DNA of 64,000 nt from a bacterium (GCA_043812655.1 JBDRLW010000030.1:39829-103828); one strand, 5' to 3'; numbered from the stretch's first letter, positions 3,646 to 58,309 are shown. Numbers and translations: made by a program. The notes: a model not told the origin generated them from the sequence alone.

Positions 3646-3743
3646 ACCGGAAATGCCAATTTGGCGTCTCCAATAAGGCTCATTGCCTTCTCGATAGTAT
3701 CAGATAATACTATACTATTATTTAACTTTCTTCTCCTATCTGA

Positions 3744-4070: not shown

Positions 4071-4161
4071 AATCCAACCCCCTTATATATTTCATTTTTA
4101 ATAAGTTCGAATATCGACCTTTACCAATATAGTTATTCAAACCTTTACTATACCTATATCG

Positions 4162-4218
4162 CCCCCCCCCCCCGCAGAAAATTTCACCCTATTTTGAAAT
4201 CGCGGTTTTTGGTATAAT
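4162..4218. promoter_or_regulatory. C12 homopolymer plus GCAGAAAATTTCACCCTATTTTGAAAT module (copy B), with an extended -10 (TGGTATAAT at 4210-4218)
   Basis: Second copy of the module seen at 1456-1490. A TGnTATAAT element lies about 130 nt upstream of the 4350 ORF. Confidence 0.5.
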
Positions 4219-4349
4219 TATTAAGTTGTGATGGAGCGGCCACTAGAAAATAAAAAAGTCGGACAATGTCTGACTAATTTTCCCGGAACAGAAATTCCAG
4301 ACGGTGTCTGGATTTTTTCCTATCCTTATAATTTTGTTAAAGGACAATA

Positions 4350-12400: not shown

Positions 12401-13523
12401 AGTCACCGATCGTTTCTCTCTAGGCTACGACTACCAATACAATGAACCGATTACGCTGAGCTCGCTCGAGACCGAAACAGCCCACACGATTTCTCTTGAC
12501 CATTCTTATAACTTGAATCTCGACCTAACAACCCTGTTCCTAAAAAAGTGGGCCCTCCGAATGGCTCTGCAAACTCATGAGGATCAAAAAATTGTTCCAG
12601 CCATGACCAGCGTCAAAACCAGGAACGAAACTTATCACATGGACATTACCCCCTTCACCATCTTAACCTCATCCATCGACCATAACCGGCAGGAGAGGAC
12701 CTCATATGTCGTAGGAGGGGAAAACCCCTTAAGCATGAGGACGGCGGCTTCAGCAAGGTTGTCCCCTGTCCCCTGGTTTTCAATAGGGGCCAACGCTTCA
12801 GTTAATGAAACAATACCGGAAACAGGCGCAATTAACAGGGCCGATGGGCGATCTAAAGCCGGTGATATTGATTTTACGCCAATATCTTTAAATCTTTTGA
12901 AGTTAAACTCTCGTTTTGTCGGCTCAGACACAAGACAGACTGCGCCGTCCGGAACCGAAAGGATCTCAACTTTCACCAATACCGTCTCTCAAAACTACAC
13001 CTTAAGTTTTAATTATATCCCTCTTGTCCCTTTAACTTTAGGGCTGCTCTCTGAAGATTATAATAATTATAATGATTCAGTCCTTTCTCATGTCGACACC
13101 AGTACGCGCAATAAAATCACAACCGCTTCAACCCAAGTTGCGCCGCCCTTCCTGCCCCAATTAACTTTAACCGCTGATTATAATCGCAAAGACACATTTA
13201 ATCTAAAAACCAATGACACCCGCCCAAAAATTGTTGTCAATGGAAAGGCCAGCTACCAAGTTACTACTTGGGGATCAATTGCCTATGATACTTCGATCGA
13301 AAGGAATCAGGGCGAGGTCCAGGCCGGTTCAATCGTTGATCTAAATTATAAAAAAACCACTTCAACCATCAGCTTGAATCTCACCCTCCCCGTTGATAAC
13401 CCGGTGCTTAACAACTTTTTAGTGGTCGCCTCTTTAAAGCGGGTTGAATATAAAAACTATTATAATTCAAGCGATGATTTTAATGCGAGCTTGTTGAGCT
13501 TTGAAGGGACGCTAAACTTCTAA
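9474..13523 (+). CDS. large (1349 aa) secreted outer-membrane protein: signal peptide, at least 5 copies of a ~60-aa 'KGPY…EGSE…LNG…L.R..DY.IDY' repeat, and a beta-rich C-terminal half ending ...EGTLNF
   Basis: Signal peptide MKRILLILALLATCHCSLA. Internal repeats are visible by eye (KGPYNLGHGSIVEGSEQVQLNG…, SRGPYKTRVHRIIPESEKIELDG…, SKGPYYLRNTRDIVPGTEAVQVWD…, NYALHSSANLVEGSEKISINNQVLNRDIDYYISY…). C-terminal Phe, as in beta-barrel OMP signatures. Confidence 0.75.
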   Translation: MKRILLILALLATCHCSLATILYADQTYPQIDISGFKKWENKKVEVDPMKNYFAGLTQLGGYYPTFSGSPWQERMTLKIAGQLSKNLSVSYDLEQQPETPEKFDVKVKYDNTELTFGDFTANFSGNEFVSASKYMNGVMLTSKDTWYDVVAVPSAKLKSQNQALTSQNGNNTKGPYNLGHGSIVEGSEQVQLNGIFLKRNVHYTIDYFEGKITFNQILSASDEFKYTYDYTNIIDLFFPTLSKRDFFGFQSRFTLDPEKFGVKPPGEEPSMATGRDVFPTNSAQAGGIPEGESSGNFQLRNIPIVRFSETLSFMGVQLKKNEDYMIRYDSGEIKLLTRFLPTAAEPLTVEYKYFQVSTEVETIPGIGSRGPYKTRVHRIIPESEKIELDGKVLIRNLDYSIDYGTGDILFGVVVGPTSQIKVSYRHNVMSLPAAPPTPFPKELKLGVTYLKESAKKSAGAPTATAIEAYSGTSIVNNGYVLSLKNRPVVTSESFTLRTKTRVLTLDVDYTFPTTEVDPVTGFVKVTPNVPLSYITDKTDLSDGVRTGTIAFLTALSASDEVTVTYTYNKSVVGKYNAAGTGSKGPYYLRNTRDIVPGTEAVQVWDQGSSIITTYTRNTSFEANAGDTGYSINYSTDNAYITFNNPLPTSKNFQVIFQYLPSTTGNNNNDISQSAFGFDGSFKIGDIFKIDSSYAKTENDQVFVAESTFETFGVGGTYPINNTKNYALHSSANLVEGSEKISINNQVLNRDIDYYISYTAPGSFSFYYITPGTLDAISVEYKFQSTAGSQSTQTTKTDTAFRLGAETKLFGDVLKLSGNTKKIGFDFSPLGGTSIGVGSEYQEYNVFFHPDYHSFFSDYSYKYNQSPIGTTRKTFLRTYDNTWSGGINPRGLVKLDLAYRTLATIDDPLTPGGLHNSDSLQDSYSISATPKDITRGQLVFSQKYDLKKTSSKNDVIDQAANKSTSTTDYFHAFGNAKVTDRFSLGYDYQYNEPITLSSLETETAHTISLDHSYNLNLDLTTLFLKKWALRMALQTHEDQKIVPAMTSVKTRNETYHMDITPFTILTSSIDHNRQERTSYVVGGENPLSMRTAASARLSPVPWFSIGANASVNETIPETGAINRADGRSKAGDIDFTPISLNLLKLNSRFVGSDTRQTAPSGTERISTFTNTVSQNYTLSFNYIPLVPLTLGLLSEDYNNYNDSVLSHVDTSTRNKITTASTQVAPPFLPQLTLTADYNRKDTFNLKTNDTRPKIVVNGKASYQVTTWGSIAYDTSIERNQGEVQAGSIVDLNYKKTTSTISLNLTLPVDNPVLNNFLVVASLKRVEYKNYYNSSDDFNASLLSFEGTLNF

Positions 13524-18055: not shown

Positions 18056-18258
18056 TTTTAGTTGGTACATTCCTGGCACCTCCTTTACAAAAGACTGAGC
18101 CGCCTTGTTAAAAATAAGGGATATCTCGTGTAACTAGCCATAAAATTTCGTTCGCTCGATCTTTAATCTCCCGGCTTCTACTCCCTTCTCCTAACTTCCA
18201 ATAACACGTGGATTGGAATATTGACAGTCCAATCAAGCGATGGGAAAATACTGTCGAG

Positions 18259-18876
18259 ATGAAACGTAACATCAGTCTGCTTATGATTATAGCGCTGACA
18301 GTCGCCGGCGCGCTGGCCCATCAGCCGGTGATAGTGGACAGGGGCGAGATTAAAATTGAGAAGCCCGAAATCTCGCGCGCTTTTTACGGCGAGCTGAAGG
18401 GCCAGCCCCAGCTTTACAATATCTATTCGGAAAAAGCTTTTGACCTCTACGTTAATCTTCTTGTCCCCAAAAACACCAACGCTGCCGGCCGCTATTCCGC
18501 GAACATTTATCAGATAATTGACAGCCGGCGCGTTTTTCTGGTTGAAATCAAGGCTGATTCAGTGGCCTGGAAAGAGCTCTACGAACCTTTTGGCGGCGAT
18601 CATTACCTCAAAGGCCCGGAGTGGAAGCAAGCGGTGCCGGCCGGGCGTTTTGAGATCGAAGTTTACAATGCTGATAACCGTGGCAAATATGTGCTGGCGG
18701 TGGGAGAAAAAGAATTTTTTGGCCCCAAAGAGATCGCCAATGTTTATACTGAATTGCCAAAACTCAAGGGAGAGTTCTTTGGCGGCAATCCCGTTTCTTT
18801 TCTCTGGTCGCCGTTCGGCATCGCAGCGGTGATCGCGGCCGCAGGCATAATCTATCTCATTTCAAAAGCGCGCTGA
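18259..18876 (+). CDS. secreted protein with a C-terminal membrane anchor; mature N-terminus begins with His (possible YcnI/CopC-like metal-binding protein)
   Basis: Signal peptide MKRNISLLMIIALTVAGALA, then HQPV…. C-terminal hydrophobic helix FGIAAVIAAAGIIYLI. Family assignment is tentative. Confidence 0.5.
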   Translation: MKRNISLLMIIALTVAGALAHQPVIVDRGEIKIEKPEISRAFYGELKGQPQLYNIYSEKAFDLYVNLLVPKNTNAAGRYSANIYQIIDSRRVFLVEIKADSVAWKELYEPFGGDHYLKGPEWKQAVPAGRFEIEVYNADNRGKYVLAVGEKEFFGPKEIANVYTELPKLKGEFFGGNPVSFLWSPFGIAAVIAAAGIIYLISKAR

Positions 18877-33041: not shown

Positions 33042-34078
33042 TTAGCATCTTATCTTTTGCCGTTGTTTTCACGATCATTGCCGTCACCCATGAATTGGGC
33101 CACCTTATCTATTCAAAGCGGAACGGCATCCGCGTCCACGAATTTGGCCTTGGCTTTGGCCCTCGTCTTTTTGCTCACACATATAAAGGGACCATCTATT
33201 CCCTTAACTTGATCCCTATCCTGGCGTTTGTTCGGATAGCTGGCGAGTCGGACGACAAAGATGATGTTGATTGCCCTCTAAGCGAGAGTTATATTTCCAA
33301 AACACCGTGGCAAAAGTTCCAAGCGATCGCCGCCGGGCCGTTTTTAAATATTATTGCCGCCATGCTTATCCTTTCTGCTCTTTTTCTTGTTACTGGAATT
33401 CCCGCCGGCCTATCAAATGAGATCGGCATAGTCAGCAAGGACTCCCCCGCCGATTTAGCCGGCCTTAAGTCTGGTGATAAATTATTGGCGATCAACGGCC
33501 AAGCCTTTCCTAAGATGGAAGAAGCGATAAGTTTTATTCATAAAAGCGGCGGGAAGAAGCTCTCTCTCTCAATTGAAAGGGCGGGTAAAAATTTTTCCGT
33601 TTACGCTGTTCCCAAATATAATGAAAAAATGAAGGTTTCTCTCTTAGGGTTTACCGCTAACGCGGTTTATAAGCGGGTTAACCCCCTCTCCGCCATTTAT
33701 CATGGAATAACCCAGGCCTTATCAATGGTTGCCATGACCATTTTTATTGTGTGGCGCCTCTTTACGGGAGGGGTTTCCTTGTCTGATATCGCTGGCCCGA
33801 TCGGGATAGCTCAAATCACCGGGAAATATGCCCAAACAGGACTTGTTTCTTTGTTGTATTTTACGGCTTTTATCAGTGCCAATATTGGAGTAATTAACTT
33901 GCTTCCCCTGCCAGCGCTAGACGGGGGCCGCCTTGTTTTTGTCTTGCTCGAGGTTATTCGTCGTAAGCCACTTAGCCCTCAGCTAGAAATGAAGATCAAT
34001 CAATGGGGAATGCTTTTTCTTCTTGCTTTAATGGCCCTCGTCTCATTTAATGATATCCTTCGTCTCTTTAAACACTAG
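33035..34078 (+). CDS. rseP: RIP site-2 zinc metalloprotease
   Basis: HELGHL zinc motif in TM1, a PDZ segment, and the LLPLPALDGG C-terminal motif. Confidence 0.85.
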   Translation: MLISILSFAVVFTIIAVTHELGHLIYSKRNGIRVHEFGLGFGPRLFAHTYKGTIYSLNLIPILAFVRIAGESDDKDDVDCPLSESYISKTPWQKFQAIAAGPFLNIIAAMLILSALFLVTGIPAGLSNEIGIVSKDSPADLAGLKSGDKLLAINGQAFPKMEEAISFIHKSGGKKLSLSIERAGKNFSVYAVPKYNEKMKVSLLGFTANAVYKRVNPLSAIYHGITQALSMVAMTIFIVWRLFTGGVSLSDIAGPIGIAQITGKYAQTGLVSLLYFTAFISANIGVINLLPLPALDGGRLVFVLLEVIRRKPLSPQLEMKINQWGMLFLLALMALVSFNDILRLFKH

Positions 34079-34926
34079 CTTCTCTCTTTGCCCCTGGCTG
34101 CCTTTACTGTGTTCTTTAAGAGCATTGCTATTGTCATCGGCCCAACTCCGCCTGGGACCGGAGTAATATAAGCCACTTTTTCTTTGGCTTCATCAAAGGC
34201 TACATCTCCTACTAGTTTTGTTCCGCGGTTCATGCCAACGTCAATTACAATGGCCCCCTCCTTGATCATGTTTCCTTTTATCATTTCGGGTTTGCCAATT
34301 GCCGCCACTAAAATATCGGCCCTTCTAGTAACCTCTCCCAAATCCTTGGTTTTTGAGTGACAAACAGTAACGGTCGCTTGGTTTTGTAAAAGCAGGATCG
34401 CCATTGGCTTGCCGACTATGTTGCTTCTTCCAACAACTACGGCTTCTTTGCCGCAAATATCTACCCCTGTGGACAAAATTAGCTCAATACAGCCCTGGGG
34501 CGTACAAGGAATGAACGGGGGTTCCTCTCCCTTTAGCAGTTTTCCCATGTTCATTGGGTGTAAACCATCAACATCCTTGTTTGGCGCGATCTCATTCAGC
34601 ACCCGTCTTTCATCCAGTCCCTTTGGCAGTGGCAACTGAACCAATATCCCGTCAATCGAATCATCACCATTAAGCTTTTTTATTGTTCCAATCAGCTCGC
34701 TTTCCTTGATTGACAAGGGAAGCCGGAGGGTCTCCGACGCTATGCCAATTTCAGCGCAAGCCCTTTCTTTGTTTCTTACATAGACCTGTGAGGCCGGGTC
34801 CTCGCCTACCAAAACGACAACCAACCTTGGCGTCTTCTTCCCGGCCTTGGCCAACGAGGCCACCTCTTCCTTTATCCCTTGTCTTATCTTTTCTGCCAAA
34901 CCCTTACCATCAATTATTTTTACCAT
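34075..34926 (-). CDS. folD: bifunctional methylene-THF dehydrogenase/cyclohydrolase
   Basis: …YVRNKERACAEIGI… and GRSNIVGKPMA motifs. Confidence 0.9.
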   Translation of the reverse strand: MVKIIDGKGLAEKIRQGIKEEVASLAKAGKKTPRLVVVLVGEDPASQVYVRNKERACAEIGIASETLRLPLSIKESELIGTIKKLNGDDSIDGILVQLPLPKGLDERRVLNEIAPNKDVDGLHPMNMGKLLKGEEPPFIPCTPQGCIELILSTGVDICGKEAVVVGRSNIVGKPMAILLLQNQATVTVCHSKTKDLGEVTRRADILVAAIGKPEMIKGNMIKEGAIVIDVGMNRGTKLVGDVAFDEAKEKVAYITPVPGGVGPMTIAMLLKNTVKAARGKERS

Positions 34927-34929
34927 AAC

Positions 34930-34951
34930 TTATCCACACTCCTTATCCACA
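34930..34951. promoter_or_regulatory. two perfect consensus DnaA boxes (TTATCCACA) in direct repeat, 4 nt apart
   Basis: TTATCCACA at 34930-34938 and 34943-34951, beginning 4 nt upstream of the folD start and overlapping its SD region. Confidence 0.5.
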
Positions 34952-34960
34952 GGCTTATGT

Positions 34961-36298
34961 CTATTTGCCAACACAGAACCGGCTAAAAATTGATTCAATT
35001 ACTTCAACCGAAACCGCCTCGCCGCTGATTTCTCCGAGCGCTATTATAGCAGAATGTAGCTCGATCGCAATAAGATCAATGGGTAGCTTTTTCGCAATTG
35101 CTTCGAGCCCCTTCTCCAACGCTTCCTTGCTCCTAATTAAACATTCCTTATGTCGCTCATTAATAGCAACTCCATCGATCAATTTATCCTGCCTCCCGTT
35201 CATTGCCAACATATAAATTTCTTCTTTTAGTTTCTCTATTCCCTCCCCGGTCTTTGCTGAAATCAAGATAAAGCCGGGCTTATCTGGATCATTAATTAAA
35301 TCAATTTTATTGAGAACCTTAATCTTCTTTTTACAGGCCGCGACATTAATCTCCTCGTTGGCCTCATTTGGGCCCGTGGTTGCGTCGTAGACCATTAAAG
35401 CTATCTCAGCAATGTCTGCGGCTAGCCTCGCTCTTTCTATCCCGATTTTTTCCGCTTCATCATTAGGGTGACGAATTCCTGCTGTATCAATAATTATAAA
35501 GGGTAGGCCGTTGATGATTATTGTTTCTTCGATCGTGTCCCTGGTTGTCCCCGGCGTTTGGGTGACGATCGCGCGTTCTTCCCCAAGCAGGGCATTAAGC
35601 AGGCTTGATTTTCCAACGTTCGGCTTGCCTATTATTGCCAGCCGAAGCCCTTCCCTAAGAACCTTCCCCTCTTCCGCGGTTTGAATTATTTTATCAATTT
35701 CATTTATCCCTTCGTTGATCGCTTTCTTTGCTTGCTCTTGCCCTCTGTCGTTTACGTCATCGGGAAAATCTATTCCCGCCTCTATCTCTGTCGCTAATCC
35801 GACCAACCGCCCCCTGACCTCTCCTATCTTTTTTCCTAGCCTTCCCTCAAGTTGCGCCATTGCGGCGTTTTTTGCTTTTATGCTTTTAGCTGAAACAATG
35901 TCAACCACCGCCTCTGCCTTCGATAGGTCGATCTTTCCGTTTAAAAAAGCCCTCTTTGTAAACTCGCCGTTCTTTGCTAATCTTGCCCCAGCGGTTATTA
36001 AAATATTTAGCACTTCTTCTGCAACGATTTTCCCCCCATGACAAGATATCTCGACGGTATTTTCACCAGTGTAACTATTTGGGGCGGCTAAGAAATAAGC
36101 TAGGGTCTCGTCAATTTTTGTTGGTTTATCAGCGTTTTTTATCCAGCCGTGGACAACTTTATGAGAGGTTTTCAGTTCTTCAGAAAAAATCTTGTTAAAT
36201 ATCGTTAACGACCTTGGCCCGCTCATTCTTATTGAGGACACCCCTCCAACACCACAAGGCGAAGTTATCGCAACAATCGTATCATCATGAATGTCCAT
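34961..36298 (-). CDS. mnmE: tRNA modification GTPase
   Basis: GKPNVGKSSLLNAL G1 motif and C-terminal CIGK. The 15-codon upstream extension in the ORF track is made of the CACGTG palindromes, so the start is placed at MDIHDD…. Confidence 0.9.
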   Translation of the reverse strand: MDIHDDTIVAITSPCGVGGVSSIRMSGPRSLTIFNKIFSEELKTSHKVVHGWIKNADKPTKIDETLAYFLAAPNSYTGENTVEISCHGGKIVAEEVLNILITAGARLAKNGEFTKRAFLNGKIDLSKAEAVVDIVSAKSIKAKNAAMAQLEGRLGKKIGEVRGRLVGLATEIEAGIDFPDDVNDRGQEQAKKAINEGINEIDKIIQTAEEGKVLREGLRLAIIGKPNVGKSSLLNALLGEERAIVTQTPGTTRDTIEETIIINGLPFIIIDTAGIRHPNDEAEKIGIERARLAADIAEIALMVYDATTGPNEANEEINVAACKKKIKVLNKIDLINDPDKPGFILISAKTGEGIEKLKEEIYMLAMNGRQDKLIDGVAINERHKECLIRSKEALEKGLEAIAKKLPIDLIAIELHSAIIALGEISGEAVSVEVIESIFSRFCVGK

Positions 36299-36300
36299 AA

Positions 36301-36342
36301 ATGTTTCACGTGGAACATTGTTTAATTGTTTCACGTGAAACA
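36301..36342. promoter_or_regulatory. tandem CACGTG-centred palindromes (ATGTTTCACGTGGAACAT and TGTTTCACGTGAAACA) immediately upstream of mnmE
   Basis: An 18-mer with one asymmetric position and a perfect 16-mer, 8 nt apart. Related copies lie at 36410-36427 and 37711-37726. Confidence 0.55.
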
Positions 36343-36360
36343 TTCTATGCCTCCATTAGT

Positions 36361-36397
36361 CTAACTAAAACATACCCCACAATTGCTTGTGGGGTAT
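36361..36397 (-). terminator. putative rho-independent terminator after jag (stem ATACCCCAC/GTGGGGTAT, then GTTTTAGTT on the minus strand)
   Basis: 9-bp perfect stem with an 8-nt loop and a T-rich tail in the transcribed orientation. Confidence 0.5.
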
Positions 36398-36409
36398 AGG
36401 CTAAATAAT

Positions 36410-36427
36410 ATGTTCCACGTGGAACAT
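36410..36427. promoter_or_regulatory. perfect 18-bp palindrome ATGTTCCACGTGGAACAT
   Basis: Lies between the jag stop and the terminator hairpin. Confidence 0.55.
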
Positions 36428-36432
36428 TGTTT

Positions 36433-37050
36433 TTACTTAGGAGAAATTACGATCCTTCGATCTTTCCCCTCTCCCCTACTCTCTGTTTTTATGTTTGGGT
36501 TTTCTGCTAATGCAAGGTGTATCATTCTTCTGTCCGCCGGCTCCATATATGGCAACACCTTTTCTGTCTTTGTTGATTCAACCTCTTCAGCAACCTCCTT
36601 GGCAAGCTTGCTTAGAACTTGTTCTCTTTTTTCCTTATATCCTCCAGCATCAATGCTTACCCTTGTCCTTCTCCCCATTATTTTGGAAACAATTGAGCTA
36701 ACAATAATTTCCAGGGCTTTTAACATAGCCCCCTCTTTACCAATGATCCTTCCCATGTCCTCCCCTTTTACGTCTAGAATTATTGTTTCTCCGTTAAGCT
36801 TCCCTTCCGCCGCCGCCAATAACCCCATTTTATCTAATATGTTTTGCAGCACCTCTCTCGCCTCTTCCGCCTCTCCGCTCTTTACAAAAACTTCAACCTC
36901 TGATTCTTCTCCACCCAAAATCCCCATAACTGCCGGCTTCCCTTCATTAATAACTTTTACCTCTATCTGCTCCTCTCCCACCCCAAGAACCTCAATCGCT
37001 GCCTTTTTTGCTTCCTCAACCGAGCGGCCTTTCATTTTCACGCTTTTCAT
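36433..37050 (-). CDS. jag: Jag/KhpB-type RNA-binding protein (KH plus R3H)
   Basis: C-terminal R3H (…DRRIVISPK) and KH-like middle. Start placed at MKSVKMKG, which has a GGAAGGA RBS and overlaps the yidC stop. Confidence 0.8.
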   Translation of the reverse strand: MKSVKMKGRSVEEAKKAAIEVLGVGEEQIEVKVINEGKPAVMGILGGEESEVEVFVKSGEAEEAREVLQNILDKMGLLAAAEGKLNGETIILDVKGEDMGRIIGKEGAMLKALEIIVSSIVSKIMGRRTRVSIDAGGYKEKREQVLSKLAKEVAEEVESTKTEKVLPYMEPADRRMIHLALAENPNIKTESRGEGKDRRIVISPK

Positions 37051-37688
37051 TATTTCCTTCCTCCTACTTTCTGTGACATTATATATGATTGTTGTGCCCA
37101 ACCCATTAGGTTTGATATTATCCAGTATAGTTGCACCCCAGCCGCAAAGTTATAACTAATAAATGTAATAAAAATTGGCATGAACATCAACATTGTCTGG
37201 TTCTGCCCCGGCGTAGTTGGCATCGACTTTTGCGATAACCACGTTGTAACACCGATTAGAACCGGTAAAATATAAAATGGGTCGTGTACGGCTATGCTGT
37301 TTATCCATCCAGGAATAAAAGATGCATTGTTCCCAATTAATGATATAAACTCCTTGCTTTGTAATGTCCAAAATAGAGCCAAAAAAAACGGTATCTTTAA
37401 CAGGACCGGAAGACACCCCCCCAACGGGTTAACTTTTTCAACCTTATAAAGATCCATCATCTCTTTTTGCAGTTTTGAGGGGTCGTCCTTGTGTTTTTCC
37501 TGTAACTCCTTAAGCCTTGGCTGAACTCTTTGCATTGCGTGCATTTGCTGCATTGACGACAACGTGAGAGGATAAAGAGCAAGATTAACCGCTATTGTTA
37601 ACCAAATTATAGCCAAGCCATAATTATGGCCACCAATAGCGTAAAAAAACTTCAGAACTTCTAAAAATATGCCCGTTACTGTTTCCAC
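37050..37688 (-). CDS. yidC: membrane protein insertase YidC (short form)
   Basis: Five TM segments; conserved …QQMHAMQRVQPRLKELQEKHKDD…PLGGCLP… GTG start with AAGGAGGG SD. Confidence 0.85.
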   Translation of the reverse strand: METVTGIFLEVLKFFYAIGGHNYGLAIIWLTIAVNLALYPLTLSSMQQMHAMQRVQPRLKELQEKHKDDPSKLQKEMMDLYKVEKVNPLGGCLPVLLKIPFFLALFWTLQSKEFISLIGNNASFIPGWINSIAVHDPFYILPVLIGVTTWLSQKSMPTTPGQNQTMLMFMPIFITFISYNFAAGVQLYWIISNLMGWAQQSYIMSQKVGGRK

Positions 37689-37710
37689 TTAACCCTCCTT
37701 TTAACAAAAT

Positions 37711-37726
37711 TGTTTCACGTGGAACA
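37711..37726. promoter_or_regulatory. palindrome TGTTTCACGTGGAACA 22-38 nt upstream of the yidC start
   Basis: Fourth member of the CACGTG palindrome family. Confidence 0.5.
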
Positions 37727-37728
37727 TT

Positions 37729-37929
37729 TTATTTTACTGGATCATACCCGCCTGGAAATAATTGATTACACGTTATTAGGCGTTTTAACGACAAATACAG
37801 CCCCTTAAGGCTCCCGTATTTATCAATTGCTTCAATTGCGTAGTCAGAACAGCTCGGATAATAGCGACAACAAGGCTTTTTTATATAAACGCTTATTTTT
37901 TTGTATAATATTAGGAAATATTTAAGCAT
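37729..37929 (-). CDS. yidD: membrane protein insertion efficiency factor YidD
   Basis: …[15 protein letters not shown]…GYDPV… is the conserved YidD signature. Confidence 0.85.
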
Positions 37930-38231
37930 TTTAGGCTCTTTTGGTACTCGGCTTTTTCTTTTTCTGCCTCTTTTGGGAAAATCACTATATCTATGTTTTT
38001 GGTCATATTATGCTTAATATCTTTATATGCGCTCACTATCCGTCGACGAGTCTTGTTCCTTTTTACCGCGTTACCAAGTGCTTTTTTACAAACCACGACC
38101 AACCTAGAAAGCCTCTGGTTGTTTCTGGCGGCCACGATGTAGAGTAGGGGGGTTGAGAATTGAAACTGTTTTTTCCTGATGATCGCTTTGATTTGCGCGC
38201 CGCTAGCGATTCGCTCGTCCCTAGGGAGCAA
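37911..38231 (-). CDS. rnpA: ribonuclease P protein component
   Basis: RnpA-like basic protein positioned between rpmH and yidD. Confidence 0.8.
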
Positions 38232-38361
38232 GCCGTTTCCGTCCCTTACGCCTTCTGCTCGATATCACCCGTCGTCCGCCTTTGGTTTTCATTTTAACCA
38301 AAAAGCCGTGCGTGGTTTTCTTTGCTTTTTTATGAGGCTGATATGTTCTTTTGGTCGACAT
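38221..38361 (-). CDS. rpmH: 50S ribosomal protein L34 (missed by the ORF track, which applies a 60-aa minimum)
   Basis: Minus-strand translation [46 protein letters not shown]. Confidence 0.92.
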
Positions 38362-38428
38362 CGTCTTTAATTATACTTGTCTTCGCGTCTTGTGTCAACT
38401 TTTTCCTTATGCTATACTTTCCCTTCCC

Positions 38429-39799
38429 ATGACAGACATAGACATTTGTTCCATTTGGAACCAAGTTTTGCCGCTACTCGAAAAAAGCCTGAACCGGCCG
38501 ATCTACGAAGCGCTTCTTTCCGGCGCTAAGCCGCAAGCCTTTGATGGCGGGGTTTTTGAGGTGGCGGTCCCTAATCAACTGGTAAAAGATTGGCTCTCAA
38601 AGTATTGCATTACCCTGCTCGAGCAAGAGTTGCAGGCCTTTTTACCTGAGGTCAAGAAGGTAAATTTTTTTGTCGGTGCCGAAGCACTTTTCTCAACGCC
38701 TATCTGTGACCCAAAAGCGCCGGAAATCCCGACCAAAAAACCGACCCAGCCTTTAAATCTATATTTAAATGCGCGGTATACTTTTGAAAATTTTGTCGTC
38801 GGCCACGGCAATCGTTTTGCCCACGCCGCCGCCGGCGCTGTGGCCGAAAGCCCCGCCACTGCCTACAACCCCTTCTTTTTATATGGCGGAGTAGGGCTGG
38901 GAAAGACCCACCTGATGCAAGCGATCGGTAATCGGGTCGTATTAAAAAACCCAAACGCAAAGATATTATATACAACCTCTGAGACTTTTACGAACGAGCT
39001 TATCGCCTCTATCCGCGAAGATAAAACCATCCAATTTAGGAACAAATACCGGAACATAGATGTTTTAATGGTTGACGACGTCCAGTTTATCGCCGGCAAA
39101 GAGCGGACACAGGAAGAGTTTTTTCACACCTTTAACGCTCTTTACGAGTCTAATAAACAGATAGTCTTGAGCTCCGACCGACCGCCAAAAGAGATGCTGA
39201 CCTTGGAAGAACGTCTTCGCTCCCGTTTTGAATGGGGACTAACCGCCGACGTTCAGGCCCCAGACTTTGAAACTAGGATAGCTATCTTACAAAAAAAGGC
39301 GGAGATCTCTGGGGTTGTCGTTTCCGATGAGGTGCTGGCCCACATCGCTGCCAAGATCGTCTCCAATATCCGTAAGCTTGAAGGGGCGCTGATCCGGGTC
39401 GTGGCGTTTGCCTCATTAAGCGGAAAAGAGATCGATTTGCCACTGGTTGAAGCTGTTTTAAAAGATTTTGCAACCACCGAAAAAGCGACCTTAAGTATTT
39501 CTATCGATCTGATAAAAAAAACCGTAGCCGAACATTACGGCGTTGCGATCGATGATCTTTCGGCCAAAACCAGGCTGCAAAAGATCGCCTTAGCCAGACA
39601 AGTGGCAATGTATATTACCAGGGAGCTTACCAGCGCTTCTCTTCCAAAGATCGGCGCCGAGTTTGGCGGAAGGGACCATACGACCGTGCTACACGCTTAT
39701 GAGAAAATTAAGGCCGACAAAAGGTCCCAATTTGAATTAGCTGACGCAATCAAGGACATATCGGCTACTGTTAAGAAATACACAACAGCCTCTGTTTAA
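38429..39799 (+). CDS. dnaA: chromosomal replication initiator protein
   Basis: Walker A GGVGLGKTHL, box VII, and C-terminal HTH (…GGRDHTTVLHA…). Start placed at MTDIDICSIWNQV; the upstream 26 codons look like an extension. Confidence 0.92.
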   Translation: MTDIDICSIWNQVLPLLEKSLNRPIYEALLSGAKPQAFDGGVFEVAVPNQLVKDWLSKYCITLLEQELQAFLPEVKKVNFFVGAEALFSTPICDPKAPEIPTKKPTQPLNLYLNARYTFENFVVGHGNRFAHAAAGAVAESPATAYNPFFLYGGVGLGKTHLMQAIGNRVVLKNPNAKILYTTSETFTNELIASIREDKTIQFRNKYRNIDVLMVDDVQFIAGKERTQEEFFHTFNALYESNKQIVLSSDRPPKEMLTLEERLRSRFEWGLTADVQAPDFETRIAILQKKAEISGVVVSDEVLAHIAAKIVSNIRKLEGALIRVVAFASLSGKEIDLPLVEAVLKDFATTEKATLSISIDLIKKTVAEHYGVAIDDLSAKTRLQKIALARQVAMYITRELTSASLPKIGAEFGGRDHTTVLHAYEKIKADKRSQFELADAIKDISATVKKYTTASV

Positions 39800-39982
39800 A
39801 ACTTTTTTTATTTGTTTTATACACAATGATAAAGGACAGGGGTTGATAACTTTCTAAAACTTTTGCTGTTATTAAAAGAATTAAAATGGTTATTAACATA
39901 TCAACAAACTCTTTTACTACTATTTCTTTTTATACTATAATTATAGGGGATAAAAACTTGTTAATAACTAAGAGGGGGGATT
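39800..39982. other. candidate oriC: AT-rich dnaA-dnaN intergenic region with at least 5 degenerate DnaA boxes
   Basis: TTATACACA (39816), GGTTGATAA (39841), TTATTAACA (39890), ATATCAACA (39899) and AGGGGATAA (39944) each differ from TTATCCACA/TGTGGATAA by 2 positions or fewer. About 75% AT. Confidence 0.45.
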
Positions 39983-41121
39983 ATGGAATTTAGTTGTGAT
40001 AAAAAAGAATTGCAGGCTGGAGTTTCAACGGTTGAAAGGATAGTTGCGACAAGAAGCACGCTGCCAATAATAGGAAATATTCTTTTTGAAGCTTCAAAAA
40101 ACGGATTAAAACTATCAGCGAATAATTTAGAAATAGGGATAGAATTAGGGATAAAGGCAAGCGTTAATAAGGAAGGGGCGATTCTTTTGCCGGCAAAGAC
40201 CTTAAGCGGCATTGTATCAAAATTACCGGAAACGGCGGTTAGTTTTAAGCTAGCAGAAAATGGGACAATGAAAATTTCTTACGACCAGTCGCAATTTAAT
40301 CTCCATTCTCTGCCGCCAGACGAGTTTCCGGCGCTGGCAAAAGTTAAAGAAGGAAAAAGCTTTTCCGTTGATCCAGATGTTTTTGTATCAATGGTGAAAC
40401 AGACCATCTTTTCTGTGTCCAGCAGCGAAGAAAAATATGTTTTAACTGGTATTTTACTCGAAGTCGGCAGAAGCCATCTATCCGGTGATCAATCAAATAT
40501 TAGAATGGTTGCGACCGATGGTTATCGCCTGGCAAAAAGAAGCGAAAAGATCGAGACAAAAGGGGACCAAGTAATTAATTTGATAGTTCCAGCAAGAGCT
40601 CTATCGGAAGCTGTAAAAATGGTTGAAATGGGAAAAGGGACAGATTTAAAAATTACCGCTTCAACAGAACAGATCAGCTTCAGATATGGAGAGGCCTTTG
40701 TTGTTTCCAGGTTGATACAAGGGCAATTTCCCGATTATAAACAGGTAATACCAAAAAAGAGCGTAACAAAGGTCACAATAAAAACGAAAGAGTTTTTAAA
40801 AGCGGCAGAGAGGGCAGCCGTTATAGCCTCTGGTTCTGCCAATGTGACGGCGTTCGAAGTAAAAAACGGGAAGCTATATTTAACAGCCAATACGCCCGAT
40901 GTTGGCAATGTTACCGAAGTGATCAGCGCCGAAATAAAAGGCGGAGAAAAGGCGAGGGCCTCTTTTAATATCCGCTTGATAACGGACGTCTTGAATGCGA
41001 TCGGAACAGAAAAAGTTATAATTGAACTTGGCGAGGGTTTAAGTCCAGGGGTAATTAGGCCGGAAGGTAATACAGATTATTTATATATTGTAATGCCGAT
41101 CAGGACACAAGAGGCTGGCTA

Positions 41122-41122
<1 letters not shown>
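39983..41122 (+). CDS. dnaN: DNA polymerase III beta sliding clamp
   Basis: 379 aa; typical three-domain clamp (…MVATDGYRLA…). Confidence 0.92.
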
Positions 41123-45942
<4,820 letters not shown>

Positions 45943-45946
<4 letters not shown>

Positions 45947-49963: not shown

Positions 49964-50851
49964 ATGGGAATCGTTTCAGTCGCAATAAAAGCAAGAGGTT
50001 TTTTTTGGGAAGGGATTGCTGTAACAACCGGCAAAGCTCCCTTGGCAAGGCTAAGAGGAAGCGACCTTATAAATAAATTATTTACCCATAAAGCAAAGTT
50101 AGCCCAGATTCCTATTTTTGGACATCAAGGGAAAGTGTTTGTGCGGGTTCAGGCTTACGAGGTTAGCCATAAAGCATTGAAACGGCTAGGGCTTAACAAC
50201 AGCTTACTAAAAAATGGGCCCTTGGTTTGCGTATTAAAGAAAGACCAATATAATAAATATTGTCTAGCGATTGGAGCGGACCCAAGTCAATTGGCCGGCG
50301 TTTATGGTCCAAAAGGAATCAAAGAGCAAGAAGAGGTCGACGGGGGGGCGCGAACCTATTTGACCTTTAACGCCAGAAAGATATTTGTTCCTGAGGACGT
50401 AGATTTCCTTACTCTTTGCCACGAAGTGCTGCACGATTATTTTATGAATTTTTTTGATACGCCGCTAGCCGGCAAAACAGATACACAGAGGAACAGAGAT
50501 TTTTATACCCAGTTGATCATACAAGAGGTAAGAAGGTCGGCTGATAAGTCAAAAAAACCTAGGGGTGTTTCGGTAGAGGAACAATTTTTCCAAGAAGTAG
50601 CGGAGAGGTGCTCAACCAGATACGACCTAAAAAGCCTCATAGAAACACCCGTAGATGTTACCCGTGGCAGATGGGGGGATGTTAGATATGTGGCGCTTTC
50701 AAAAGAAACCCAGCTTTTTGTTCGAGAATGTTTTGCTTATGGCGGCGCGACCTTAGCGACAGAAAAAAAATGGGGAGGGGTTGGCGAGCAAGGGATGGGA
50801 AAAGTCCCCAAAGAACTAGAAATAGCGTTAAGAAAGGTCGTTCTTGCTTAA
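49964..50851 (+). CDS. uncharacterised protein, paralog A (295 aa), contains HEVLH (HExxH)
   Basis: Alignable by eye with the downstream ORF (…LVCVLKKDQY…VPEDVDFLTLCHEVLHDYF…ECFAYGGATLA…). Confidence 0.55.
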   Translation: MGIVSVAIKARGFFWEGIAVTTGKAPLARLRGSDLINKLFTHKAKLAQIPIFGHQGKVFVRVQAYEVSHKALKRLGLNNSLLKNGPLVCVLKKDQYNKYCLAIGADPSQLAGVYGPKGIKEQEEVDGGARTYLTFNARKIFVPEDVDFLTLCHEVLHDYFMNFFDTPLAGKTDTQRNRDFYTQLIIQEVRRSADKSKKPRGVSVEEQFFQEVAERCSTRYDLKSLIETPVDVTRGRWGDVRYVALSKETQLFVRECFAYGGATLATEKKWGGVGEQGMGKVPKELEIALRKVVLA

Positions 50852-50918: not shown

Positions 50919-51620
50919 ATGCACGCAAGTAAAATTTCTCTTCCACGGACAATAATTAATTTTTTGACAGGACGAACAATAAACGCGAATTTAAGGGGAA
51001 TAGAATTGTTTGGCAGATTATTTGCTTCTGTCCCCAATAGATCAGGAATATACACAAAAGAAGAAGGAGTCCAACGACTTTCCATAGAGGTTCTGATTTT
51101 TCACATTAATGGCCCAGTCGCAAAGCTTTTAGGGATCAAAAAAGAATGGCTTGAGCCGGGGATATATGTTTGTGTGGCAAAAAAAGAAGGCCATGACGGC
51201 TTTGTTTCCGGACATTGGCTAGCAAGACATGGTTCTGCCGGTAGCCAAGTTGACACAAAAATAGAATCAAGACAGGTCTTAATTCCAGATGATGCGGACA
51301 TGAGAACATTGTGCCACGCGATTTTGCTCGATGGTTTTAACAATGCTAAAGAAGAAAGTCTGAATTTTAGGGGCGCTCCCTTTGCTTATTTGGTTGCGGA
51401 GGCAGTTAACGCACAAGCAGGGATTAGATTTTTTAACGAAGTTTCAAGGCGAAGCGGCACTCCCCTAAACCCAGAAAGTTCAGCTTTTATTGCCGAGTCT
51501 TTTGCTTACGGCGGAACAAAGGTTTTAATGGCAAGGCTAGTTGGCGGAGAGGAAAAAAAATCAGTGAGCGAGGTGCCAGCAAGGCTAAGAAGGTTCTTCC
51601 TCAAGAATCTTTGCGCCTAA
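50919..51620 (+). CDS. uncharacterised protein, paralog B (233 aa), HExxH degenerated to HAILL
   Basis: …IYVCVAKKEGH…IPDDADMRTLCHAILLDGF…ESFAYGGTKVL…. Confidence 0.55.
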   Translation: MHASKISLPRTIINFLTGRTINANLRGIELFGRLFASVPNRSGIYTKEEGVQRLSIEVLIFHINGPVAKLLGIKKEWLEPGIYVCVAKKEGHDGFVSGHWLARHGSAGSQVDTKIESRQVLIPDDADMRTLCHAILLDGFNNAKEESLNFRGAPFAYLVAEAVNAQAGIRFFNEVSRRSGTPLNPESSAFIAESFAYGGTKVLMARLVGGEEKKSVSEVPARLRRFFLKNLCA

Positions 51621-51621
51621 A

Positions 51622-52680
51622 TTAACTAAGCGCGGCGATCAATTTTTCGTTCTGCTCTTTGGTCCCGATCGAAATCCGAATCGCTTGCGGAAAACCAAAA
51701 GAGGTAAGCGGCCGGATAATTATCCCTTTTTTCATCAGTGAAAGAAACATTTCATCGGCCGATTTTTTTATATCAACAAAAATAAAATTAGCTTCGGTCT
51801 TTTTATGGCTCAAACTAAGCTTATCAAGTTCCGCGTACAAACATTTTTTCCCTTCGATATTGTTCTGATAGGTTTTCTCCAAAAAGTCTTTATCTTCTAA
51901 GGCCGCGGCGGCGCCGACTTGCGCTAAGCGATTAACATTAAATGGCATTTTGGTTTTGAGCATTGGGGAGATCAACGCTTCTTTGGCTATCCCATAACCG
52001 ACACGGAGTCCAGCCAGGCCGTAATATTTGGAAAAGGTTCGTAAAACAAGAACATTCTTTCCCTCTTTTACATAATTAATGATATTTGGAAATTCCTTGC
52101 TCTCAACAAACCCAGCATAGGCCTCATCCACCACCACCAAAATGTTCTCCGGGACCTTCTGGATGAAGGAGTCGAATTGCTCGGCCGAAAAAATTGTGCC
52201 GGTCGGATTATTAGGGTTGGTCAAGAAAATGATTTTTGTTTTTTTGGTGATCGCCTTGGCGATATTGTCCAAACTAATTTCATTGTCCTTTAGATCAACT
52301 AAAACCAATTTTCCGCCAAAGATCCGCGTGACCAGCTCGTAAAGGCTAAAAGTATTTTTGGAGATAACCACTTCATCTCCAGGGTTTAAATAAGTTGAGG
52401 CCAGGACCTGCATAATATCATCCGAGCCATTGCCGCAAACAACCGAACGATCTGACACGCCAAGCTTTTTCGCTAGGGCTTCGCGCAGGAGCGTTGATTT
52501 TTGATCGGGATAAGTTTGTAATTTGCCGAGCTCGGCGGTAATTGCCGCCAAGGCTCTAGGGGAGGGCCCAAAAGGGTTTTCATTTGACGCGAGCTTAACG
52601 GCCCCAGGCTCGGTCGGTGTTTTTCCTGGAAGATATTCTTTGATCCCTTCGACTTCCGGCCGGATGAAATCTTTAGCCAT
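51622..52680 (-). CDS. hisC: histidinol-phosphate aminotransferase
   Basis: Class II aminotransferase; …YPDQ…, …LRTFSKYYGLAGLRVGY… PLP-Lys region. Confidence 0.85.
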   Translation of the reverse strand: MAKDFIRPEVEGIKEYLPGKTPTEPGAVKLASNENPFGPSPRALAAITAELGKLQTYPDQKSTLLREALAKKLGVSDRSVVCGNGSDDIMQVLASTYLNPGDEVVISKNTFSLYELVTRIFGGKLVLVDLKDNEISLDNIAKAITKKTKIIFLTNPNNPTGTIFSAEQFDSFIQKVPENILVVVDEAYAGFVESKEFPNIINYVKEGKNVLVLRTFSKYYGLAGLRVGYGIAKEALISPMLKTKMPFNVNRLAQVGAAAALEDKDFLEKTYQNNIEGKKCLYAELDKLSLSHKKTEANFIFVDIKKSADEMFLSLMKKGIIIRPLTSFGFPQAIRISIGTKEQNEKLIAALS

Positions 52681-53396
52681 TAAAAAGGGTTAGCCCAGGA
52701 GAAACCGATAGCGGCGGACCTGGCATCCTTAACCTGGGTTCCATTCAATAGATTTATCCCCGAAAGGGTGAGCGAGAAGATCGGGGTAAAGTAGATCTTG
52801 GCGCCAGCATTGACCTGGAATAGCGTTTCCCCCGCCATCATGTCGGCAAGTAAAAAGAAAGTGTCGGCCAGCGGAAATTCGACCCCGGCGATCCCCATGG
52901 GGCGGAATCTATTGTTAGGAAAATCAGCCATAAAACCAAAAGTAGCCTTTGGCCCTTGTTTGAAATATTTAGTTGCGACCATGTAAACATCTGTTTGGGT
53001 GTAAGAAAAAAGATTTTCGGTCCCTAGCGCTAAAAGGAGAGGATAGGTGTCATCCCCGCTGGAAAGAGAGAGCTTCATATTAACAAAAACCCCTTCACGC
53101 ATTTGTTTGGTGTTCTTATCTGTCCCGCCGACAACCCCCAGCTCCAAGCCATGGAAGGCGCCGATGTTCATGTTATAGCTGACCATTGATTCACCGGTCG
53201 CGCCACCATCAGGCATCGACTGGCCAAAGCTGCCGCCAACATTAAAATTTTTATATTCAATAATGTCGGCGGAGGGGATCCGGATCAAGCCTGTTGGGCC
53301 ATTAATGGCTTGGGAAGGAAAAACCTTAGGATAAGCCAGTGTCGCAGGCGAAATTAATAATAAGATAAACGAGAGGAACAAAAGTTTTTTTAGCAT
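52680..53396 (-). CDS. putative outer-membrane beta-barrel protein (signal peptide, C-terminal …WANPF)
   Basis: Signal peptide MLKKLLFLSFILLLISPATLA. Alternating beta-strand pattern and a C-terminal Phe. Confidence 0.55.
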   Translation of the reverse strand: MLKKLLFLSFILLLISPATLAYPKVFPSQAINGPTGLIRIPSADIIEYKNFNVGGSFGQSMPDGGATGESMVSYNMNIGAFHGLELGVVGGTDKNTKQMREGVFVNMKLSLSSGDDTYPLLLALGTENLFSYTQTDVYMVATKYFKQGPKATFGFMADFPNNRFRPMGIAGVEFPLADTFFLLADMMAGETLFQVNAGAKIYFTPIFSLTLSGINLLNGTQVKDARSAAIGFSWANPF

Positions 53397-53412
53397 GATG
53401 GCGCCCCCTTTA

Positions 53413-54528
53413 TTAGGACTTTTCGATGAGGAAATTATAGAGGCTTTCGGTTTGCTTTGCAACCGCTAAGGACGAGAATCGTTCCCGCGCGTCATCCCGG
53501 GCCGCCCGCCCCATCTTTTCCCTTAATTGGCCATCTTTAAGCAACCGCCCAAGGTGCTCAACATAAACGTCTTGCCGTCGGGGCAACAGATACCCGTCAG
53601 TCCCGCCTCGCACTGCGTCGGTCAGTCCGCCGGCGAACAGCGCGACGATTGGCAGGCCGGCCCCCTTGGCTTCGGCTAAGACCAAGCCTTGGGTTTCGGT
53701 CAGCGAAGAAAAAACAAAAACATCGCCAATAAAATAATACCGCAAGATCTCCGGGTAGGGGACTTCACCGGTCACAATAATATTTTTATGATGATGTTTT
53801 CTTAGCTCTTTTTCCAGTGGTCCGCCGCCGACCAGGACCAACCGCAGGCCGTCAACCGCGAGTTGTTCAAAGGCCTTAACGATGAAAGGGAGGTTCTTTT
53901 CCTTGGAAAGCCGGCCGACATAGAGAAGGACTTTGTCGGTTGATAAAAGCCCGTATTTATTCCGGAGATTTTTCCTGGTTTCTTCGGCATTGCGAGGGTA
54001 GAGGGAAAGCTCGACCCCGGAGGGGATAACATGGATTGGCCGATCAACCTGCCATTTAAGCAGGACCCTTCTAGCCATCGCGGATGGTGTAATGACCGCG
54101 TCGGCGCCGCCGCAGAAAGAACGGAGGTAGGCAACAATCCCCATTTTTGCTAATTTTTTAGGAACGAACCTTGCATAATGGACATAACGGGTAAATAAAG
54201 TATGAAACGAATAAACAAAAGGGACCCCTTTTTTTCTGGCGATATACCTCGCCAACAACCCGGCCTGAAAAGGGGAATGGCTATGGATTAGGTCGATCTC
54301 GGGGACCTTTCGGATAAAGGGGATCGCCAAGCGAAACTTTGGGTAACCGCCAGCGATCGAAGGGAAACGAAAAATATCCGGGTCGGCGTCAACGTGTCCC
54401 GGGTAATGCGGAGCAAAAACGTAAACCTTATGGCCAAGGGCGCGCAATTCGTTGACCAATATCTCCGCCGAGTTGGTAACGCCGGAAAGGTACGGCTTGT
54501 AAGAGTCAGCAAAAAAAGCGATCTTCAC
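53413..54528 (-). CDS. GT4-family glycosyltransferase
   Basis: MKIAFFADSYKPYLSGV… N-terminus and E…E C-terminal motif typical of GT-B/GT4. Confidence 0.85.
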   Translation of the reverse strand: MKIAFFADSYKPYLSGVTNSAEILVNELRALGHKVYVFAPHYPGHVDADPDIFRFPSIAGGYPKFRLAIPFIRKVPEIDLIHSHSPFQAGLLARYIARKKGVPFVYSFHTLFTRYVHYARFVPKKLAKMGIVAYLRSFCGGADAVITPSAMARRVLLKWQVDRPIHVIPSGVELSLYPRNAEETRKNLRNKYGLLSTDKVLLYVGRLSKEKNLPFIVKAFEQLAVDGLRLVLVGGGPLEKELRKHHHKNIIVTGEVPYPEILRYYFIGDVFVFSSLTETQGLVLAEAKGAGLPIVALFAGGLTDAVRGGTDGYLLPRRQDVYVEHLGRLLKDGQLREKMGRAARDDARERFSSLAVAKQTESLYNFLIEKS

Positions 54529-55938: not shown

Positions 55939-57768
55939 TTAACATTGACGCCTTTGCTTTTCAAGGCAAACGAGCAAAACGGCAATGTCGGCCGGGGAAA
56001 CCCCGGCGATCCGGCCGGCCGCGCCGACGGAAGCCGGACGCAATTTATCTAATTTTAATCTTGCCTCCGAAGAAAGGCCGCGTAATCCCTGGTAGTCAAA
56101 GGAAGAGGGGAGGAGCTTTTCTTCAAGCTTTTTAAAGCGGCCGATCTGAATAAGCTGGCGGGCAATATAGCCGGCATATTTTTCGCTGATCTCAATTTGC
56201 TCCGCGACTTCGGGAGAGGTCCTTTCTTTGTTCTCTACGGCAGCCTGTTTTTTTAAAAAAGCCTGATAGCGCTCTTCGGAAATTAATCCGGCGCGGTAGC
56301 CTTTTTCGGTTAAGCGGAGGTCGGCATTGTCTTGCCGTAAAAGGAGGCGATATTCTGACCTGGAAGTGAGCATCCGGTACGGCTCATTAATTTCCTTAGT
56401 GATGAGATCGTCAATTAGTGTCCCAATGTAGCTGTCGTCACGTAGCAAGATCAAGGGAGTCTGTTCTTTTATTTTTAGGGCGGCATTTATCCCGGCGACG
56501 ATCCCTTGAGCGGCAGCTTCTTCATAACCGGAGGTCCCATTAATTTGTCCGGCGCAAAAAAGTCCGCTTATCAGTTTAGCCTCCAGCGTGTTTTTTAATT
56601 GTTCCGGTAAAACATAATCATATTCAACTGCATAGCCGGGGCGAATGATCTCGACATTTTCAAGCCCAGCCATTGTCCGTAAAAAAGCCAGCTGGACATC
56701 TTCCGGGAGGGAGGTCGACATTCCTTGCGCGTACATTTCCAGGGTCTCTCTGCCGGTCGGTTCGATAAAACATTGATGCCGGTCTTTTTCCGGGAAGCGG
56801 ACAACCTTATCTTCGATCGAGGGGCAATACCTGGGGCCGACGCCCTGGATCTTTTTTTGAAATAAGGGAGAACGATCAAGGTTGGCGCGGATGATCTCAT
56901 GGGTGGCTTCGTTGGTCCACGTGAGATGGCAGGGGACTTGTGACAGGGAGAGGCAGGGATTATAGGGAAGAGCAGGGAGGAGGATGGAGTTCCCTTCCTT
57001 GCTCATCCCTGCTCTTCCTTGTCCCTCCTTGCAATCCCCGTACTGACGATATTCCCAGACAAACGAAAACATTCTGGGCGGCTCATCGCCGGGCTGGGGG
57101 GTCATTTTGGAAAAATCGATAGAGCGCTTGTTCAAACGAGCGGGAGTCCCGGTTTTTAAGCGACCAAGAGTTAGCCCAAGTTCTTTTAATGAAGCGGACA
57201 ATCCTTTGGCCGGGAATTCCCCCATCCTCCCGGCTTCCTGATGGTTCATCCCGACGTGGATAATGCCGTTTAGAAAAGTACCAGTAGTAACAATAACCGT
57301 CTTTCCTTCATAGATAACATCAAGCTTCGTCTTTATTCCCATTACCCCATTCGCATTACGCGCTACCAAAACTTCAGCCACCTCTCCCTGCTTCAAATCA
57401 AGGTTATCTTGTTCTTCCAAAACTTTTTTCATGATCCGATGATATTGCTTGCGGTCGGATTGCGCGCGCAAGGCTTGGACCGCCGGTCCTTTATTGGTAT
57501 TTAGCATCTTCATTTGCAGGAAAGTGAGGTCGGTGGTAATTCCCATCTGCCCGCCCAAAGCGTCAACTTCACGGACTAATTGGCTTTTGGCTGGACCACC
57601 GATGGCAGGATTACACGGCATAAATCCGATGGTATCTATATTCATGGTAAGAAGGAGCGTCTGGCAGCCCAAACGGGCAGAGGCCAAGGCCGCTTCGATC
57701 CCAGCGTGCCCGGCGCCAATGACGATAACATCATAGTGTTTGGGGTAGACCGTTGTATTAGCGAACAT
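55939..57768 (-). CDS. mnmG: tRNA uridine-5-carboxymethylaminomethyl synthesis enzyme MnmG (GidA), with a ~28-aa in-frame insertion
   Basis: FAD motif [16 protein letters not shown] and conserved …[11 protein letters not shown]…[13 protein letters not shown]… About 28 extra residues between the FSF and QVPC motifs relative to the E. coli enzyme. Confidence 0.9.
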
Positions 57769-58309
57769 TTTTTTGGGTTTGTTTAATAAAATGCTGGTAT
57801 TTTTCGTTTTGCCCCTCAACTATCGCCCAGCGTTTTAGCTCTTTCAAATCAATTTTCTGTTGTCTATAAACCATTAGCGCCTGACCTAATGATTGTTGGT
57901 CATTCCAATGAAAATACGCCGCCAAGCGGTCTTTGACGCAGTCGGTGGGGCTTAATAGCCGCAACTCTCCGACCTTGGTCTTTATCTTTCGGACCGATTT
58001 AACCGGCTCCCGGCCTACGGATAGAGGGGGAGATAAAAATTCGATGATATAAGGACATTTTGGGTGAGCAAAAAAACCTTGCGCGGCAAGCTCAAAGCCG
58101 ATCTCGGCCATAACGGCCTTGATCTTTTTGCCGTGCAGATCAACAGCGCTGGTCACAAAGTCTAAATCCAAAGACTGATACTCATTTTTTGAGTAAATAG
58201 TCACGCAGCTGCCGCCAGTTAAGACCGCGTTGATCCGATATTTTCTAAGCTGTGTGGAGACGAAAACAGCCAGGTCCTTGATAGAAATAGAGGAGAGGTC
58301 TTTTTTCAA
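57758..58309 (-). CDS. nucleotidyltransferase-fold protein (AbiEii-like minimal NTase)
   Basis: …[12 protein letters not shown]… (hG[GS] motif) and …SLDLDFV… ([DE]h[DE]h motif). Overlaps the upstream wHTH gene by 4 nt. Confidence 0.6.

Follow-up and report, generated by a model that had tools for sequence, protein, structure and literature searches.

The question raised by this locus is what reads a family of four CACGTG-centred palindromes, which lie within 1.4 kb around mnmE, jag and yidC in a 64-kb window (the whole stretch of DNA that was analyzed). The original prediction proposed that they are operators bound by some unidentified regulator of dimeric type, hairpins at the RNA level, or elements resembling REP/MITE, and stated that no described regulator with this site was known. 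Such a protein has been described: the sequence corresponded to the parS consensus of ParB/Spo0J (PMC7022226 and PMC2346475). The four palindromes are almost certainly chromosomal parS, centromere-like loading sites for ParB (Spo0J), 0.7-2.1 kb from dnaA and the origin, as judged from the nucleotide sequence and its comparison with relatives. The proposal of an operator was thus correct in a generic sense only (a dimeric protein on a palindrome), while the word "unidentified" did not stand. This assignment was based on the sequence match, the origin-proximal location, the small number and clustering of the copies within the 64 kb, their conservation in relatives, the invariance of their positions, and the precedent in mycobacteria. 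The palindromes are a known element in an uncultured lineage, and not a new one.

The whole window was searched with TGTTYCACGTGRAACA, allowing two or fewer mismatches, and 100 dinucleotide-preserving shuffles were used as the control. The 16-bp motif TGTT[TC]CACGTG[AG]AACA was detected four times (36302, 36327, 36411, and 37711), against a chance expectation of 0.03 in 64 kb, and none of the 100 shuffles reached four, confirming that the family is beyond chance. The restriction to this short region also held at this threshold: four copies in 1.4 kb and none in the other 62 kb. When three mismatches were allowed, two further weak matches appeared (15248 and 48644) against a chance expectation of approximately 1. 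The 8-mer half-sites were confined to the four sites, except for one GTGAAACA at 40394. No similarity was found among the flanks of the sites beyond 18 bp, with just one A/T on each side in common.

Direct reading of 36100-37900 confirmed the four palindromes at their predicted positions, including the two perfect ones (36327 and 36410). Site 1 (18-mer ATGTTTCACGTGGAACAT at 36301-36318; 16-mer at 36302..36317) matched the consensus exactly (plus strand, TGTTTCACGTGGAACA; minus strand, TGTTCCACGTGAAACA). It was located 3 nt upstream of an internal ATG of mnmE (36298), and would be part of the mnmE ORF in the case of a start at 36343. Site 2 (36327..36342) was the perfect palindrome TGTTTCACGTGAAACA, identical to parS of B. 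subtilis and M. tuberculosis, and directly adjoined the ATG at 36343. Site 3 (18-mer ATGTTCCACGTGGAACAT at 36410-36427; 16-mer TGTTCCACGTGGAACA at 36411..36426) was also a perfect palindrome, with one mismatch to the consensus. As had been proposed, it lay between jag and its terminator: 6 nt past the stop codon of jag and, reading along the minus strand, ahead of a terminator-like hairpin of 12 bp (36398-36371). Site 4 (37711..37726) read TGTTTCACGTGGAACA (minus strand, TGTTCCACGTGAAACA), another exact match; it was located 2 nt past the yidD stop codon and 22 nt ahead of the GTG start codon of yidC, close to the predicted distance of approximately 25 nt.

Compared with the published consensus TGTTNCACGTGAAACA, sites 1, 2, and 4 were therefore exact when read on one strand or on both, and a single position differed in site 3. 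A literature search with the consensus string led to ParB/parS papers. Chromosomal parS sites are described as highly conserved palindromes, "mainly TGTTNCACGTGAAACA", and this consensus is given for Firmicutes, Actinobacteria, Proteobacteria and others, including B. subtilis (8 of its 10 sites fall within the ori domain), chromosome I of B. cenocepacia, and C. glutamicum (PMC7022226). In the same source, parS of H. neptunium is TGTTTCACGTGAAACA, while the TGTTCCACGTGGAACA variant, corresponding to site 3, is given for P. aeruginosa and M. xanthus. The 16-bp perfect palindrome of Lin and Grossman, TGTTTCACGTGAAACA, is quoted for both B. subtilis and M. tuberculosis (PMC2346475).

The location of parS in the ori domain is a conserved feature of ParABS systems, and the par operon and parS are found together near oriC in most species (parS review). 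This defining location was also found here: dnaA and dnaN were adjacent, and cumulative GC skew dropped steadily to a minimum at approximately 38-40 kb and rose afterwards, from which we concluded that the window spans the replication origin. On the minus strand, Pfam assigned rnpA (37911-38231), yidD (37729-37929), yidC (37050-37688; GTG start with an AGGAGGG Shine-Dalgarno sequence), jag/khpB (36433-37050; R3H, KH, and Jag_N domains), mnmE (34961 to 36343 or 36298), and folD (34075-34926). The jag start is probably ATG 37050 instead of TTG 37101. Divergent from the rnpA-yidD-yidC-jag-mnmE genes, dnaA (38429..39799) and dnaN (39983-41122) were assigned by Pfam on the plus strand, followed by two further plus-strand ORFs (41409-43379 and 43376-45946), the first of which aligned with gyrB of the relatives. 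A 46-codon rpmH (38221-38361, minus strand) had been missed by the 50-aa cut-off for ORFs; it was preceded by a perfect TTGACA-17-TATAAT promoter (38398..38370). Since the listed start codon of the dnaA ORF (TTG 38351) overlaps rpmH, ATG 38429 is probably the true one, leaving a rpmH-dnaA spacer of 67 nt.

The spacer between dnaA and dnaN (39800-39982) had a GC content of 24.6%, and its single DnaA box was imperfect (TTATACACA at 39817). This spacer is the likeliest candidate for oriC and the DNA-unwinding element; it lay at the GC-skew minimum and was notably poor in consensus DnaA boxes. Only two perfect boxes (TTATCCACA) were found in 64 kb, in tandem (34930-34938 and 34943-34951) in the 34-nt mnmE-folD spacer, where they flanked the Shine-Dalgarno sequence of folD (minus-strand sense, CCTGTGGATAAGGAGTGTGGATAAGTTATG). 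Elsewhere in the window, a 1349-aa ORF (9474-13523, plus strand) had no significant Pfam domain, its match to DUF2460 being sub-threshold, and several mid-size ORFs gave no Pfam match: 718-1407, 18208-18876, 49964-50851, 50919-51620, 52680-53462, and 57758-58309.

Relatives of the locus were collected with MnmE as the query. Among species-representative genomes, two metagenome-assembled genomes of Candidatus Margulisiibacteriota were obtained (L001 and L002; 46% identity), and a scan of metagenomes added L007 (48%) and L005 and L006 (40-41%). L004 and L001 were one and the same contig, which was counted only once. L003 (Rhodanobacteraceae), with a partial match of 29% identity, was left out as a useful relative; no parS-like site was found at its locus. 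By tblastn with the proteins of the window, L001, L002, and L007 shared the arrangement gyrB-dnaN-dnaA / rnpA-yidD-yidC-jag-mnmE-folD-M50 peptidase, with identities to the window of 79-86% for GyrB, 67-73% for DnaA, and 46-48% for MnmE. In L007, the alignment of gyrB was split into two segments (2938-3270 and 3254-4894) that overlapped and were not in the same frame, suggesting a frameshift or an assembly error.

All three syntenic loci carried parS at the yidD/yidC junction (L001, 8666; L002, 8688; L007, 8652), orthologous to site 4. The second parS was located at the jag/mnmE junction in L002 (9978), orthologous to sites 1-3 of the window, and in the mnmE-folD spacer in L001 (11352) and L007 (11324). 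L005 and L006 had another local gene order, and a perfect parS was found 6 nt after mnmE. Each relative carried one or two copies in a locus of 2-21 kb, all within the same operon, while the chance expectation per locus was 0.02-0.03. The original prediction had asked whether the motif is conserved in related genomes, and these results gave an affirmative answer: the consensus parS occurred at orthologous junctions in relatives with only 40-48% identity in MnmE. The sites show strong purifying selection on the universal parS sequence in this Margulisiibacteriota-related lineage.

The tandem DnaA boxes of the mnmE-folD spacer also recurred in the relatives. The 24-nt element containing them was found in L001 (11383-11404) and L007 (11351-11372), and partly in L002 (11344-11365); it was kept although the proteins were just 46-67% identical. 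In L001 and L007, it lay 11-15 nt past a parS. The pair could be a DnaA-controlled start region of folD, a DnaA-titrating cluster, or a part of the origin.

A gene for the protein that would read the sites was not found nearby. Pfam scans of 40 ORFs detected neither ParB nor ParA genes in the window. No match was obtained there by tblastn with Spo0J and Soj probes, which on its own was a weak test; the Pfam result is firmer. Similarly, tblastn with these probes detected neither protein within ±10 kb of the loci of the relatives. Any parB would be at least 28 kb away on one side and at least 34 kb away on the other. The mnmG/gidA gene (55939-57819, minus strand), 20 kb from mnmE, was not followed by rsmG-parA-parB, and thus the usual linkage between parS and parAB is absent here. 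The usual mnmE-mnmG-rsmG-parAB order was split up in this lineage, with folD after mnmE instead, in the relatives as well as in the window. A literature search on Margulisbacteria plus ParB found nothing relevant. We infer a cognate ParB from the strict conservation of the sites and the near-universal distribution of ParB (PMC7022226).

The sites were compared with known systems. Like the Spo0J/parS system of B. subtilis (TGTTNCACGTGAAACA; Lin and Grossman 1998), they consist of the identical 16-bp sequence (with one mismatch at site 3), in copies that were few and clustered in the window, origin-proximal, and conserved across relatives. Unlike in most species, parAB is not adjacent, and the four sites lie at junctions of the rnpA-mnmE operon. 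In B. subtilis, parS sites are mostly inside coding regions. The perfect TGTTTCACGTGAAACA and the oriC-side neighborhood of yidC/orf60K-jag-gid are shared with the mycobacterial parS sites (jag-gidB-parA; PMC2346475). On the other hand, the latter are located 1-2 kb upstream of parB, in contrast to the distances of at least 28 and 34 kb described above. Of the mycobacterial sites, one is in a promoter/5' region and another is at the 5' end of a coding sequence; a gidB promoter is overlapped by one site (PMC2346475). The TGTTCCACGTGGAACA-type clusters of P. aeruginosa and M. xanthus resemble the present ones in the variant found at site 3 and in the packing of several sites near oriC, and differ in copy numbers and spacing. 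Binding of P. aeruginosa ParB to dispersed half-parS (review) has no counterpart here, because half-site motifs hardly occurred outside the four sites in the 64 kb. The differences from known parS (parAB not nearby, and the position at rnpA-mnmE junctions) are minor, and, by analogy with these systems, the main role of the sites would be chromosome segregation and organization and not operon regulation.

A wider function is conceivable, albeit improbable: loading of ParB, and binding of DnaA, may also gate the transcription of yidC, mnmE, and folD, which would couple the insertion of membrane proteins, the modification of tRNA, and folate metabolism to the replication/segregation cycle. In this reading, parS would be uncoupled from parAB and fixed at operon junctions, with one site always right behind yidD and another over the mnmE start codon, translated as an N-terminal FHVK extension, and would be accompanied by the pair of DnaA boxes over the ribosome-binding site of folD. 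In a more extreme form, the lineage would be devoid of ParB, with another protein reading parS.

A dimeric DNA-binding protein other than ParB, such as a transcription regulator or a diverged, Noc-like paralogue of ParB, is very unlikely to use the sites as operators for control of the rnpA-yidC-jag-mnmE operon. The positions of the sites at junctions (22 nt before yidC, over the start of mnmE, and past jag) are as expected for operators, and neither ParB nor ParA is encoded nearby; furthermore, ParB at parS was proposed to affect neighboring promoters in mycobacteria, a regulatory side-effect having been suggested for the site at the gidB promoter (PMC2346475). However, the sequence is identical, and not just similar, to canonical parS, and the reviews consulted on ParB/parS describe no regulator of this site besides ParB. 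The shift of the second site among the relatives, between the jag/mnmE and mnmE/folD junctions, also suits a location "somewhere near oriC" over a fixed promoter-operator geometry. The Noc-binding site (NBS) has the consensus ATTTCCCGGGAAAT, with a CCCGGG core, and differs from parS at the specificity positions. Since the present sites have a CACGTG core and TGTT/AACA arms, the reading as Noc sites was rejected.

A function at the RNA level, with the palindromes folding into hairpins of the rnpA-yidC-jag-mnmE transcript that act in processing, stability, or translation control, would be compatible with the position of all four sites in transcribed spacers or at the 5' end of mnmE, and with the detection of site 3 by a simple terminator scan. 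We aligned 12 sites from approximately four lineages in the mRNA sense. Fourteen of the 16 positions were invariant; recurrent variation was found just at positions 5 and 12, plus position 1 once. This pair (C or T with A or G) corresponds to N of the published consensus. Perfect copies were able to form stems of 6-7 bp (-4.7 to -7.4 kcal/mol), whereas four of the 12 sites, including sites 1 and 4 of the window (two of four), had an uncompensated C.A mismatch at positions 5/12 and a predicted RNA stability of only -0.2 to -0.6 kcal/mol, such that these four cannot form a hairpin. No compensatory changes were found among the 12 sites, and it was the primary sequence that was kept instead, including the CACGTG core, which would form the loop and was invariant. 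In a permissive Rfam scan (34800-38500), all matches were at the level expected by chance, and no family reached its threshold (the best, RsaE, scored 26.9 bits against a gathering threshold of 79, with an E-value of 0.16; Ysr283 was also sub-threshold). The hairpin reading is thus contradicted, and we regard it as extremely unlikely. The pattern of variation in these sequences fits the signature of sequence-specific recognition of DNA by a protein, and argues against an RNA structure or a REP/MITE element.

Although the sites are short palindromic repeats of intergenic spacers, an accidental cluster of dispersed REP/MITE-like repeats has next to no probability, as the sites were confined to the operon in the window and every relative, with no further copy in 64 kb (two or fewer mismatches), half-sites almost as confined, unrelated flanks beyond 18 bp, and a 16-mer retained at orthologous junctions of genomes with proteins of only 40-48% identity, which mobile repeats do not show.

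As parS, each 16-bp site would be recognized by a ParB dimer through its helix-turn-helix domains, as inferred from known ParABS systems. In these systems, parS is the nucleation site for ParB, whose N-terminal domain with the GERRxRA motif binds CTP, and the resulting clamp leaves parS and slides; the partition complex recruits SMC at origin-proximal parS and is moved by ParA (PMC7333895). By the same scheme, ParB of this lineage would bind CTP, close as a clamp, and slide off onto the flanking DNA, and repeated loading at four close sites would cover the origin region with a large complex of ParB and DNA. Four sites in 1.4 kb beside dnaA may represent a high-capacity loading zone, from which the complex would recruit the SMC condensin and, where ParA is present, be moved to segregate the new origins. 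The junctions of rpmH-rnpA-yidD-yidC-jag-mnmE are probably the places where a 16-bp palindrome is tolerated near oriC, and do not indicate a role in the operon. The centromere of the chromosome would lie at these sites, which, combined with dnaA and the switch in GC skew, help to locate the origin in a little-studied, uncultured lineage with a relationship to Candidatus Margulisiibacteriota. The sites also predict the places where ParB and SMC are loaded, and provide a ready-made probe for ParB of the lineage. The importance beyond annotation is small.

One such point of annotation concerns the 5' end of mnmE, where sites 1 and 2 are located. The tandem pair abuts the start of this gene, as originally predicted; however, the accompanying claim that it had created a false N-terminal extension in the ORF call is doubtful. 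A canonical GGAGG was found 6 nt upstream of ATG 36343, whereas the internal ATG at 36298 had no Shine-Dalgarno sequence. With initiation at 36343, the two parS sites would encode 15 additional residues at the N-terminus (MFHVKQLNNVPRETF). In L002, an in-frame TGA directly precedes parS in front of mnmE, so that no start codon in frame is available except TTG 9977 and GTG 9986, both inside parS; this parS (region 9974-9993) was translated in the same frame as in the window, yielding FHVK. The Shine-Dalgarno sequence at 36343 and the start codons inside parS of L002 suggested that the extension may be genuine, and parS may, therefore, overlap the mnmE start codon, which should be noted in annotating these genomes.
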